Assembly: GCA_964016885.1 (NCBI GenBank)
Contig: OZ024764.1
Coordinates: 14,756,001-14,820,000 of the forward strand
Direction: 5' to 3'
Source of the DNA: Eledone cirrhosa
Lineage: Eukaryota
DNA length: 64,000 nucleotides
Under the pieces are notes generated by a model. It did no database searches. It saw only the letters and a list, made by a program, of their open reading frames with translations, and was not told the DNA's origin. The stretch's first letter is position 1, and every line of letters starts with the position of its first letter. Below, one piece after another: positions 19,011-32,636 of the stretch. A program made the position numbers and the translations under genes.

Positions 19011-22000
19011 TCATGTGTGTGGTAGCCAATGGGGAGCAAGGAGCGTCTGTAAGGCCTCCTGGGTGCTCAACCTCCTGCTAGAACTCTCCCTAATCAAGGC
19101 CTCCAGGCACTGCCTCTGCCTGCGGGCCTCGTCCTCATCGACACCACCGCTGCTGCTGCTGCTGTTGTTGCCGCGTCTGTTGCCATGGTCACCACCACCA
19201 CCACCACCACCACCACTCTTAGGGCCGGCGCTCCCCCCCGCTTCGGTTGTCGGCCCTCGGTGGTGACCCTTCACCTCACACACCGATATCACCTCACTGC
19301 ACTCCTCGATCTCGAAGTTCGGCTGCAGGAAAACCCCTCCACTGCCGCCGCCGCTGCTGGTCACGTGACCCAGAACACCTGCCCCGACACCACTAGGGCT
19401 CCCACCACCGCCACCACCACCACCACCACCACCGCCGGATGCTGGGTTGATGCGGAATTTTATCTCGATGCTTCTTTCAGTTTCTATATACGGCCCGATC
19501 GATTGATCGTCCGACGACTGAGACGATGACAGCGATCGCTGATCCCCTGCCTCAGTATTGAACCCAGGATCGGCAGAGTGTCGGTCTAGGTCTGGGTCGC
19601 ATTCAAGTTCAGAGCCACCAGGTGTCACTGTTGACAGAAACGTCGGTTGTGGTTGTGGTTGTTGTTGTTGTTGGTGTGGTTGTTGTGGTGGTGAGTGTTG
19701 GGGAGAAGTGATGAACAGTGTCTGGCGACCTATCCCGGAGTAATAGCTACCGTTGCCATCACTGCTGCCCGTCTCTCCCATGTTTCTGCCACCACCCCCG
19801 CTGATGTCAGACGCTGCTGTTGTTCTCGTTGTAGTTGTTGTCACATCGTATCCAGGCCCACCACCACCACCACCACCACCGCCGCCGCAGCCTCCTCCGC
19901 CACTTGTCAACCTTGCCTTTCCATAGCCATAGATTGACGATGATGATGATGATGATGATGATAATGGGGATGGCGATGATGATAAAGACTGTTGTTGTTG
20001 TTGTTGCTGTTGGTATCGCCACGGTGACAGACGACGACCTTCCGTCGAGGTCAAGGTCGAGGTCGCTGCTCCACCAAACAGGCTGTCCCGGGGTGGCACT
20101 TCGTGCACGCTGTACGAGAAGGAGAGCGTCTGCGGTGTCGTCACCGCTGGTGTTGTTGGTGTGGACGGCGGGGGTAAGGGTTTCGGTGGCGACAATACAG
20201 GGGAGCTAACTGGGGTGTGCGTCGTTGCGGTCATCGTGTCCGCGGTGAGGGGCGTGTGGTAATATATCCGCGAGTAACTCAAGGGACTAAACCCTGCTGT
20301 CACGCCACCCGAGCCAGAGCCTGTGCCCCCAGAAGGGCCCACACGGTGGGAGGTTTCTTTTGTACCGGTTTGACCCCGATTGCAATACCATTGTGACCCC
20401 TGTGCCATCCTTTGGTCCAAATTTCTACCCCCGAGGTTCAAGACGAACGTCTCAGTTTCTCCGAGTTGCTCCGCCTGGTCGTGATCCCATTGAGAACTAC
20501 TCTGCTCCAGACTGGTCGCTGCAGGAATGTTCAAGTCCAGTGTAGCGGCACCCTCACCTGCTCTACCACTACCACCGTCCCCTTTTATACTCCCAAATCC
20601 TTGATACGGATATCCACAAGTAAGGACTTTTACATCTTCGTACTGAACAGGACTGTTAGCTCCGGTGTCATCGTCATGACAATGGACACCATCTTTGTCC
20701 ATGTCCATGTCCAATACAGACTGCCCGTGATGAGAGTGGGGTCCCTCAGTTTTGATGTTGAGGAACATGGGCCGAGAATACCTTGGTTTGTCTTGGAGTT
20801 CTTCCTCGGAGATGACGCAGACGTCTTCGTAGACGTTATCCGACTCTTCCGGAATCACTTCCAGGAACGGGTGACGTATTTCCAAAACGTCGCACTCCCC
20901 ATGACCATCGTCGTCACCACCATACCTCGTTTCAGACGATTCCTGGAAGCAGACACTCTTTGGGGTGGTCCCGGGGCCTGCGTTCCTGGTTGTGTTTGAA
21001 ACTGAAGATTCGTGGCCGTATATATCTTCGACAAGAGATTCTACGCTCTTTTGACCCTGGAAATCACAATCAAACAGAGCCTGTTGCTGTTGTTGGGAAT
21101 GGCCGGAACCTGTTGTTGGACATGTGGCTTCCATTGGAGAAAGTGTGTTCTTTGCTGAGGAGTATGTTGTCATGCCTGGAGAATTTAACTTTAAATGACT
21201 GCCACTATCACCGCCACTGGGCCTGGAACTGGGACCACTGCCGAAATTGTCTCCATGGAAGCCACTTGCTAAGTCATGGCTAGTATTTAAAGTAAGATTC
21301 GTTGGAAAGTTCTCAGCCACACCGACCCCGCTACCAATTCCACCACAAATACCACCACCAACTCCACTACAAACACCACTACCAACTTCACCACAAACAC
21401 CACAAACACCACTACCAATACCACCACAAACGCCGCCATCAATTCCACTGACACCACCACCAACTACAACACTGCTATCAGCTCGACCGTGCCTGTGGCC
21501 ATCATCATTGTCCTTACAGAGATCAAAGCCAAAACGGTCATCGGAATTTCCTCCCGATGTTGTTTGAGGCTCTGATATTGTCACTCCAAAGCCCAAATTA
21601 TTTTTCTTCTCGGAAGAAACATCCGATGGTGATGGGGAAGTTTCCGGAAAAGAATGAAAGACCTTGGAATCACCACTCTTGGGAACATTTCCAATGTAAC
21701 CCTCGCTAGTTTTATCAGCCAAACGTTCACCATCTTCGGCAGATTCTTTACTAATATAATTCTTATCGACAGATGCCGGTGAATGATGTCTTTCTGTCTG
21801 ATCGGAGCTCCAGATCTGGGAAGGGCTCTCGTATAAATTTCCACTAAATTTTCTGTCATCCTGAATAATGTCCTCGTAGAGATTTTGGTCAAAACTCTCA
21901 GGGGCCTCGTAAAACTGTTCTTGTTGATCTGATAGCTGCTGCTGTTGTTGGCTATCCAATGATAAATTCTGGTCAACTGTGGCGACCTGAATTGGTTGTT

Positions 22001-31000: not shown

Positions 31001-32636
31001 CTCCGAGGCCCTGGGAAGCAAATCCACTGTCTTGGTTCACTCCATCACTATACACCTTAGGAACATTTCCACCGATCCCAGATGCTGCTGCATTATTCTG
31101 TAAAGGTTCATCGATTTTCAGGGTCTTCGGTCTCTCCTCGATGTTTGCTGCCACGCTTCTTTTGACTCTGTTTTTGGGGCTCAAAGATGGGCCCTTTTCC
31201 AGATACATGACAGGCCCACTTTCCACCTTCGTTATTAAGCGCTGTGGATCCCTTTTTTCTGCACACGTACTAGAAGTAGTATTACCAGCGTCGATTTCTA
31301 CATCAGTTTTTGCCCTTACATCCTGTTCAGCTCCCAATGCTTCCACAGCAGCAGTGGATTTCACATCAGTGTTTATATCCCCGTCAGTGGCATTGTTTTC
31401 CACACCACCACCAATAGGCTCGTTGAGCACACTCGCCATAGGTCCAATTTCCATACTAAGATCTGGTTCAGTTTCCACACCTACGTCAATTTTATTTTCC
31501 GCAATCTTTCTCTTCTTCGACTTCTTCTCCTCCTTTTCTTCTTTTTCCGTCTTTCCAGCAATTTCCTTCGGTTCCGTTTTCACGCCCTCGTCTAATTTCT
31601 CGTCCTTATGTGCTGAGCTTTGTCCAGTATTTGCGTGTGTTTCCTCCGTCTTTTTTCCATCGCTTTCCTTTCCATCTTCCTCGTGCTGTTTCTGTTTCTT
31701 ATCATCATCATTGCCGCCATCATCGTCACTTTTCTTATCTCCCTTTGCTACAGACCCAACGACATCTTTCTCGAGTTTCTCTTCAGCGAGATCATCAGGG
31801 TCGTCAGTTCCGACTTTGACATCTCTTGTCCTCGTTTTCATCTTTTCCTTGCCACCATCGTCGTCTGCGACATCAGTGTCCTCATCGTCAGCGATGTTTG
31901 TTGTCGATGAAAGGCTTTCGCCATTTTCCTGCGTCTCCAGAAGAAACGGCAAGCTCAAAGCCTTGCAAATCCGATTGCACGTATGCATCCTAAAAAAACT
32001 CTTTATACCGGAGCGCCCTCTGTCAGTTGAACCCCATTGTTTGTCCGATGAATGAATAATCGGATTCGTCAGTAAAAACTCATTCTCGTGTGCAATGCCC
32101 TGCAGCCCACAGATGAGAGTGTCACGAGTCTCACAAGCTGTAAAATGACTAAAAGCCTGCAGGATGTAAGCATTCTCGGCACCTTTCAACGGACTGTTAC
32201 GATAGAACTTTCGGAAGCTGTGTCGAAGATATGGTTCGACAACCACACAGTCATCGGTATCAATAGCTTTGATGTCGGAACACCAATAAAGGCAGCCCGT
32301 ACAGGTAGAAACGGTGTCGAGGTGGGCCAAAATCGGGATCAAGAACTCGACTTTATACTGACCCCTCAATTTATTATTGAATTTCTCGGCAAGATCATTG
32401 GCGGCACTTGCTTTAGCCACATACTGGCTCCAATCAGATGGCTCGGCAACAAATTTGCGGAACATCTTGACAGCGCAGTATTCCCCCGATCTGGGGCCAT
32501 CCCCATTCAACCGACCCTTGAATACATACATGCTGCCACCTTCTTTGACCGGCTTGTATTCAAATTCAGCCCAGTACCTGTGATTAGTCTGGTCATTTGT
32601 AGAGAGCAATGTCCGGTTTGAAAACTGTACAGCCAT
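19011..32636 (-). CDS. Giant single-ORF protein (4541 aa): N-terminal alpha-kinase-like (predicted pseudokinase) domain plus very long low-complexity/tandem-repeat tail
   Basis: 13.6 kb without a stop in otherwise microsatellite-ridden DNA; GC-richer than flanks; ATG in aaaATGG context; aa ~20-230 carry alpha-kinase motifs (CAVK, VEPYL..F.KF, QAFSHFT, xLQG, LTxP.IH, G.TD.G..GI..FF..HxCN.IC..L). Exon structure beyond this ORF cannot be established. Confidence 0.88.
22010..22280 (-). repeat. Coding 36-39-bp repeat (GT[G/C]GPFRDQQ..), about 6-7 copies
   Basis: Repeated ggtccctaaatggtccac. Confidence 0.9.
22495..23190 (-). repeat. Coding 48-bp/16-aa repeat (QYSPGVQY[T/K/V]PPGVPSD), about 14 copies
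   Basis: Repeated gaacaccagggctgtattgatcagaaggtacccc at 48-bp spacing. Confidence 0.95.
23790..25800 (-). repeat. Coding 60-bp/20-aa repeat ([22 protein letters not shown]), roughly 30+ near-identical copies
   Basis: The 60-nt lines from 24061 to 25200 are almost identical; all indels preserve frame. Confidence 0.95.
25830..27100 (-). repeat. Coding polyQ-YEVP repeat ([18 protein letters not shown], ~42-48 bp units)
   Basis: About 15 YEVP motifs in the translation; DNA units share ggtacctcat. Confidence 0.9.
27780..28110 (-). repeat. Coding 60-bp/20-aa repeat ([24 protein letters not shown]), about 5 copies
   Basis: Recurring caagagttaagtccctt at 60-bp spacing; translation shows repeated RDLTL. 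Confidence 0.9.
31947..32579 (-). other. Alpha-kinase (eEF2K/MHCK/TRPM7 family) domain, catalytically degenerate
   Basis: Zn ligands H164, H218, C220, C224 and Lys57 retained; canonical DLQG reads GLQG (G177, 32106-32108) and canonical LTDP reads LTNP (N191, 32064-32066). Confidence 0.88.

Follow-up and report, generated by a model that had tools for sequence, protein, structure and literature searches.

A giant gene of Eledone cirrhosa with an uninterrupted coding region, a probably dead alpha-kinase head and a repeat-rich tail: a putative signalling scaffold of coleoid cephalopods

What might a protein of more than four thousand residues do when its only recognisable domain is a kinase domain without its catalytic aspartates? 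The question is raised by a gene in a 64,000-nucleotide (nt) stretch of the Eledone cirrhosa genome (assembly GCA_964016885.1, contig OZ024764.1, positions 14,756,001 to 14,820,000; here called the window), in which the minus strand carries an open reading frame (ORF) from an ATG at 32636 to a stop codon ending at 19011, spanning 13,626 nt and 4,541 amino acids (aa). The original prediction for this locus, made from the sequence alone, was an alpha-pseudokinase fused to a disordered scaffold. We put the chance at somewhat better than even that the product is a cytoplasmic pseudokinase serving as a signalling scaffold rather than as an enzyme; as a reading, such a scaffold-like role draws support from an apparently dead but constrained head, from conserved islands in colinear order along the tail, and from repeats that seem interchangeable between lineages.

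The reading frame and its alpha-kinase head

19011..32636, minus strand: single uninterrupted ORF of 4,541 aa (frame translation and stop statistics)
31929..32636, minus strand: predicted pseudokinase head of alpha-kinase fold, aa 1-236, with K57 kept, G177 and N191 at the catalytic positions and the zinc ligands kept (Pfam, alignment, AlphaFold2, Foldseek)

The ORF is free of Ns and internal stops and lies in a stop-to-stop frame running from 32789 to 19011, of which 32636 is the first ATG. The remaining five frames across the region contain 97 to 375 stops each, and a plus-strand reading of 19011..32636 is ruled out by its 104 stops. The open frame is not due to chance, even outside the repeat arrays: calculated from base composition, the log10 probability of a stop-free frame is about -33 for aa 236-1845 and about -21 for aa 3520-4541. 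The single 13.6-kb ORF of the original prediction is thereby confirmed, on the minus strand, which had not been specified. With a G+C content of 43-57% per kb, the ORF forms a sharp island within AT-rich, microsatellite-laden surroundings. Three DNA runs were compared with the contig over 28130-32690, and all three reproduce it over 29366-32661; these runs behave as low-coverage genomic DNA from one sample, possibly the source of the assembly itself, and are thus silent on transcription and not independent support. A search of sequencing runs listed no RNA data set containing the locus.

A Pfam profile search, which had been suggested as a check, places Alpha_kinase (PF02816) at aa 32-224 (E 1.5e-29; 103.8 bits against a cut-off of 21.3), and it is the sole match: no second Pfam domain was found in the 4,541-aa protein or in any of the three orthologues described below, in line with the earlier view that no other domain is recognisable. 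The head was modelled by AlphaFold2 from a 65-sequence alignment with a predicted local distance difference test (pLDDT) of 91.6 and a predicted template modelling (TM) score of 0.88. A Foldseek search with the head returns MHCK-A at the top (E 5.6e-15, TM score 0.71), followed by EhAK1, TRPM7, eEF2K and ALPK1, so that profile, model and structural search all bear out the N-terminal alpha-kinase domain. FoldIndex values for the head are +0.09 to +0.12 in the four orthologous proteins, that of E. cirrhosa included.

Both catalytic aspartate positions are replaced. G177 corresponds to D756 of MHCK-A (in D-x-Q-G) and N191 to D766 (in T-D-P), and both substitutions are common to all four orthologues. 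Retained are K57, the equivalent of the ATP-binding K645 of MHCK-A (lysine in this column in 128 of the 148 non-giant relatives among the best 150 of 2,836 representatives at E ≤ 0.001), together with E134, Q179 and the ligands H164, H218, C220 and C224 of the C-lobe zinc finger, an alpha-kinase feature described in PMC2827801. D766 of MHCK-A is invariant and catalytically essential, according to PMC4876393, and the PDB entries for the MHCK-A mutants D756A (4zs4) and D766A (3lmi) are titled 'inactive'. Because these mutants are inactive, the head is probably inactive too, and the label of pseudokinase, already given in the original prediction, appears well founded by motif. Profile, fold and zinc finger place the head in the alpha-kinase family; the motif argues that it is not an active member. 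The retained residues, in a confidently modelled fold, would also suit an atypical but active kinase or ATPase that employs other residues and has the tail as its own substrate array. We regard this as very improbable, as neither aspartate column holds an acidic replacement in any of the four orthologues and a single substitution at either position suffices to inactivate MHCK-A.

Orthologues and the architecture of the tail

Three orthologues were found in searches by length class and in an exhaustive search of representatives. Octopus sinensis XP_036370910.1 (LOC115225996; 3,296 aa) is 92% identical in the head, Sepia/Acanthosepion pharaonis CAE1163088.1 (1,603 aa) is 59% identical, and a 1,530-aa ENA protein of cuttlefish type is 58% identical and shares 83% with the Sepia head. 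The O. sinensis and Sepia proteins have the head, the G/N substitutions and the architecture in common with the giant protein, although both are shorter and are annotated only as uncharacterised. The head is thus under strong constraint despite its dead site. In each of the three orthologues the head is followed by a long, acidic tail that contains a tandem array in its central part; tail length ranges from 1,290 to 4,300 aa among the four proteins. Orthologues that stop soon after the kinase would have spoken against the original prediction; the three tails are about 1,290-3,060 aa long, and no short-tailed orthologue was found in these searches. Word-index searches, within their limits of sensitivity and annotation, named no orthologue from O. 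bimaculoides or O. vulgaris. The gene had been called lineage-specific, which is correct for coleoid cephalopods (octopus and cuttlefish) and incorrect for a single species.

Five main repeat arrays had been noted in the tail, and a tandem-repeat search recovers them with periods of 69, about 42-57, 60, 48 and 39 nt, together with a small one of 24 nt:

27806..28109, minus strand: Array A, 69-nt (23-aa) unit, 4.3 copies, aa 1510-1611
25832..27124, minus strand: Array B1, degenerate 14-20-aa Gln/Tyr units, aa 1838-2269
23830..25813, minus strand: Array B2, 60-nt (20-aa) unit, 33.7 copies, aa 2275-2936
22507..23175, minus strand: Array C, 48-nt (16-aa) Pro/Tyr unit, 14 copies, aa 3154-3377
22036..22281, minus strand: Array D, 39-nt (12-13-aa) unit, about 6 copies, aa 3452-3534

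Tandem arrays account for some 37% of the ORF (about 1,690 aa), the remainder of the tail being low-complexity sequence with conserved islands; the '~4300-aa disordered repeat scaffold' of the original prediction was right as to the long tail and overstated the share of repeats. A hand tally covered 150 of the 205 rows from Tandem Repeats Finder, counting periods of at least 20 nt: all 30 of the overlapping rows that fall within the ORF have a period that is a multiple of 3, compared with 16 of the 47 rows beyond it. The Array B1 unit family recurs in the O. sinensis orthologue, and Array C is mostly without alignment to it. Gln makes up about 38% of Array B2, whose units vary in length in 6-nt steps and contain about one Tyr each and often a Cys; aa 1845-3000 contain 36 Cys. 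In O. sinensis the units mostly lack Cys, and Tyr is exchanged for Thr, Phe or His. The octopus repeats are composed largely of Gln, Ser and Pro, and those of the cuttlefish of Glu, Thr and Ala, in an unrelated unit without Gln, Cys or Tyr. Because the repeats of the two lineages are unrelated, we read them as spacers of free sequence.

The residues of Array B2 could also point to an intracellular structural protein, in which the folded head would target a single-exon Gln/Cys/Tyr repeat body to be cross-linked (by transglutaminase, disulfide or dityrosine) into an envelope or cytoskeletal matrix, on the model of the S100 fused-type proteins or involucrin. These residues are the ones that the cuttlefish repeats lack and that are lost or swapped in O. 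sinensis, and conservation sits in the islands outside the repeats, so that we think a structural role unlikely, even though a Mytilus gene labelled VwkA, a possible member of the vwkA-like family, is expressed in the shell field (PMC9283884).

Conservation in the tail is concentrated in 15 islands that are colinear with O. sinensis through to the stop, while in the sequence around them identity falls to about 20-50% per 100 aa. Among them are the following:

30360..30560, minus strand: LQTPP island, aa 693-759 with its core at aa 698-723; no other part of the tail is conserved between octopus and cuttlefish above the null
29856..29909, minus strand: Cys-Cys followed by basic residues, aa 910-927, kept in O. 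sinensis (alignment)
29337..29381, minus strand: acidic Tyr motif with YxN, aa 1086-1100, kept in O. sinensis (alignment)
28461..29201, minus strand: four further islands, aa 1146-1163, 1277-1294, 1311-1329 and 1378-1392, kept in O. sinensis
20775..21083, minus strand: two acidic islands, aa 3852-3878 and 3913-3954 (the second with YEDV/YEDI), kept in O. sinensis
19278..19496, minus strand: two islands, aa 4381-4401 and 4433-4453, kept in O. sinensis
19011..19142, minus strand: C-terminal island, with the same stop position in O. sinensis (alignment)

Of the last 41 residues, 40 are identical to O. sinensis. The LQTPP island scores 66 between octopus and cuttlefish, against maxima of 29.5-43 in 25 shuffles; no other octopus-cuttlefish resemblance in the tail exceeds the shuffled null, and an 'I.FRIN' motif towards the C-terminal end, visible on inspection of all four orthologues, was rejected on the same ground. 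Two motifs, both chosen after inspection, are over-represented: Y[ED][DE][ILV] occurs three times in the non-repeat tail of each octopus (0.13-0.16 in shuffles), and [LI]xTPP four and three times in the two octopus tails (0.16-0.17 shuffled). The Cys-Cys/basic patch is a candidate palmitoylation site and membrane anchor, since we take the motif to be of that type. The YxN motif at aa 1086-1100 fits the Grb2-SH2 consensus pYxNx given in PMC10279719. A p130Cas-like YxxP array was also considered and was dropped, as its Tyr residues are not kept in O. sinensis. A further segment (29625-29681 of the window, minus strand; aa 986-1004) is strongly basic with RSxxSW repeats, is partly kept in O. sinensis, and could be a nuclear-localisation or membrane-binding patch.

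It is also conceivable, if improbable in our estimate, that function rests with the head and a handful of islands alone and that the tail is tolerated slippage in a genome prone to repeats, a long but near-neutral linker, or is largely spliced out to give a far shorter protein. The range of tail lengths and the unrelated repeats are consistent with this, as are low-complexity inserts within the kinase domains of both paralogues (see below) and the ratio of silent to replacement variants among repeat copies, which is 1 to 3 in Array B2 and 2 to 2 in Array C. Against it stand a frame open over 13.6 kb in which every array period is divisible by 3, islands along the whole tail to the stop, and long-tailed database models in each of the three other species.

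The tail is likely disordered, its FoldIndex being negative in all four orthologues (-0.09 to -0.12). Single-sequence AlphaFold2 of aa 1-1000 gave a pLDDT of 33.6 and failed on the head as well, so it has no bearing on tail disorder, and for two tail segments the ESM Atlas returned nothing at 0.9 or above. There is no N-terminal hydrophobic stretch and no signal or membrane segment, the best 19-aa hydropathy being 1.39, for which reason the protein is presumed to be cytoplasmic. As a scaffold it would dock a partner through its folded head and recruit signalling proteins through short conserved motifs in the disordered tail, spaced by freely expanding repeats; in octopuses the YxN and YE[DE][VI] motifs are predicted phosphotyrosine docking sites, and the Cys-Cys/basic patch would tether the protein to a membrane.

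Several points weigh against this scaffold reading. Only one tail island is common to octopus and cuttlefish above the null, and the Cys-Cys/basic patch and Y[ED][DE][ILV] are missing from both cuttlefish tails, so that the docking set does not extend to coleoids as a whole. YxN is only weakly enriched, with p values of 0.03-0.44 in the four tails, a broader acidic-Tyr motif shows no enrichment, and YxxP, with 36 occurrences in the repeats of the giant protein, is found 8 times in O. sinensis where 6.3 are expected. Some stretches of the non-repeat tail have a slightly positive FoldIndex, the disorder being read from composition. Finally, one of the three DNA runs has a one-base deletion at 31013 of the window, a frameshift at codon 542 at a depth of about 5; the other two runs lack it, and it is probably an assembly error, with a null allele as the alternative.

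A sister kinase and the wider invertebrate family

An intact sister alpha-kinase lies 44 kb upstream on the same contig and strand (G000:C25:14831601-14832740, minus strand); it is intron-free, keeps both aspartates and ends directly after the zinc finger. Within its domain is a low-complexity insert of about 75 aa, which is shorter in O. sinensis and missing in one family relative (P0007). A third intron-free member, 2.4 Mb away on the plus strand (G000:C25, about 17.23 Mb), is degenerate, with its second Asp changed to Cys and its Lys to Arg, and has a long poly-Gly insert at the position of the insert in the sister kinase. Both paralogues have a pyrimidine tract and CAG shortly upstream of the ATG, which suggests a 5' untranslated intron in each. 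Before the giant gene there is a CAG at 32662-32664 of the window (minus strand), 26 nt upstream of the ATG; it resembles these acceptor-like sites, except that it is preceded by (TA)n instead of a pyrimidine tract.

The four proteins of the giant clade group together (support 100/99) as sister to the clade of the intact neighbour, with 98/90 in a 49-row tree and 96 in a 148-row quick tree, which omits 6 short rows of 154. The two corresponding genes of O. sinensis, LOC115225995 and LOC115225996, directly follow each other as loci, and the longest contig given for each is 17,062,404 bp. The simplest account would be a tandem duplication of an intron-free gene, before the divergence of octopus and cuttlefish as we infer, followed by loss of catalysis and growth of the tail; the direction from intact to dead is presumed, the trees being unrooted. 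Tandem duplication is favoured over retroposition because the sister adjoins and is likewise intron-free, and with two intron-free paralogues the uninterrupted coding region can be taken as a family trait. The original prediction had allowed that the gene was retroposed, but an intron-free copy of an intron-containing parent elsewhere is not supported on these grounds. It had also noted that classical alpha-kinases are multi-exon, and as expected the likely eEF2K of this genome is a separate gene in three exon pieces on another contig (C12). One further alpha-kinase (G000:C1:140369525-140370022, minus strand), by eye ALPK1-like, has intact aspartates and most of the domain in a 205-aa frame that ends after the zinc finger.

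For the scaffold, the intact sister kinase would be the most likely partner or upstream writer. Pairing of alpha-kinase domains has a precedent in TRPM6 and TRPM7, whose domains heteromerise according to PMC2827801. Complex predictions for the head with the intact neighbour, made without alignments, scored 0.28 and 0.29, where the mark was 0.34, and carry no weight for or against such pairing.

The original prediction had measured the protein against ALPKs and TRPMs, with their C-terminal kinases, but these are not the right reference. Its nearest relatives are invertebrate alpha-kinases that stand alone, and in 126 of the 148 the domain begins within 40 aa of the N-terminus (identity 28-46%). 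Those named among 20 clusters looked up come from Lingula, Liolophura, Haliotis, Biomphalaria, Physella, scallops, Mercenaria, Potamilus, Convolutriloba and octopus, and their database names (vwkA-like, eEF2K-like, MHCK-like or uncharacterised) are labels only. These relatives share with the giant protein an N-terminal PF02816, frequent Asp loss and a variable low-complexity tail, but lack the size and tandem arrays of the giant clade (median 302 aa and maximum 1,210 aa, against 1,530-4,541 aa). Both aspartates are kept in 75 of the 148, at least one is lost in 70, and 3 are truncated; in the 148-row tree the majority of the dead rows belong to a single large group, so the losses are not independent events.

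PPxY and/or P[ST]AP motifs occur in the tails of 41 of the 70 dead relatives and of 4 of the 75 that keep both aspartates, where shuffling gives means of 3.5 and 1.1. In alpha-arrestins and LITAF these motifs serve Nedd4-type ligases and Tsg101, and the tailed relatives are possibly an undescribed family of adaptors for Nedd4 and the endosomal sorting complex required for transport (ESCRT), built on a dead alpha-kinase head. The giant protein might be an oversized version of such a ubiquitin/ESCRT adaptor, its dead head taking cargo and its tail motifs binding the ligases (PPxY) and Tsg101 (PSAP), and each cuttlefish-type orthologue does have one PPEY. We consider this quite improbable for the giant protein, given that neither motif occurs in it or in the O. 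sinensis orthologue and that the giant clade groups with the intact kinase and not with the PSAP/PPxY rows.

Comparison with known systems

The architecture had not been recognised in the original prediction, and we found no published description of the giant protein or of invertebrate alpha-pseudokinases in a search that left subscription papers and supplements (e.g. cephalopod transcriptome tables) uncovered. In the literature searched, no paper was found that cites the orthologue accessions or that combines alpha-kinase and PPxY. The orthologues are already in databases as uncharacterised models, and both the fold and the idea of a pseudokinase scaffold are already known.

ALPK3 is encoded by many exons, and in it Ig domains accompany a kinase at the C-terminus. 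It is a vertebrate alpha-pseudokinase and M-band scaffold, and would share with the giant protein a non-catalytic alpha-kinase fold on a long protein and a scaffolding role, but it keeps the catalytic D1774 (PMC9698156), whereas the giant protein has lost both aspartates and carries its domain at the N-terminus, which speaks for a separate origin. More generally, in ALPK1-3 and TRPM6-7 the kinase is C-terminal and is joined to Ig, ADP-heptose-binding or channel domains, unlike the giant protein with its N-terminal domain and no other Pfam match, and the SEL1, WD40 or vWA domains that accompany the kinase in eEF2K, MHCK and VwkA proper were not found in the giant protein or its orthologues. In manner of working the giant protein may resemble PEAK1/2/3, in which a dead kinase accompanies a long disordered region with conserved short motifs (phosphotyrosine/SH2 sites; PMC10279719). 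The likeness stops there: the C-terminal kinase domain of the PEAK proteins is of the conventional fold and goes with a SHED dimerisation domain, and there is no homology to the alpha-kinase fold of the giant protein. A small folded head with a huge, fast-evolving repeat body in one large exon is known from the S100 fused-type proteins (filaggrin, hornerin), involucrin and AHNAK; the giant protein differs in its alpha-kinase head, has no EF-hand or PDZ domain, and is not homologous to them.

The locus offers an independent and unambiguous dead alpha-kinase, with both aspartates lost, that has been retained across octopus and cuttlefish; at this locus its active sister gene lies close by, and the pair is suited to asking what a dead alpha-kinase domain does. 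The giant gene is a candidate coleoid innovation with a tail that is elastic over a threefold range, and the nearest invertebrate relatives listed, about half of them dead and many PSAP/PPxY-tailed, point to an overlooked adaptor family. A wider picture, which we offer tentatively and hold to be rather doubtful, is that dead alpha-kinase adaptors radiated in invertebrates, most of them PSAP/PPxY-tailed, and that coleoids derived a linked kinase-pseudokinase pair whose dead partner became a giant single-exon scaffold with repeat spacers re-invented independently, a coleoid-specific structure or hub under its active neighbour.

Two other features of the window were noted. A 65-bp satellite unit forms arrays at 15510-16815 (20 copies) and 39271-40239 (15 copies), in opposite orientation, flanking the gene. 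At 54402-54956 on the plus strand there is a fragment in which a PHD finger is recognised (E 1.9e-7); the sequence before the finger resembles, in our view, the end of a long interspersed nuclear element (LINE) reverse transcriptase, and the fragment is likely a retrotransposon remnant.

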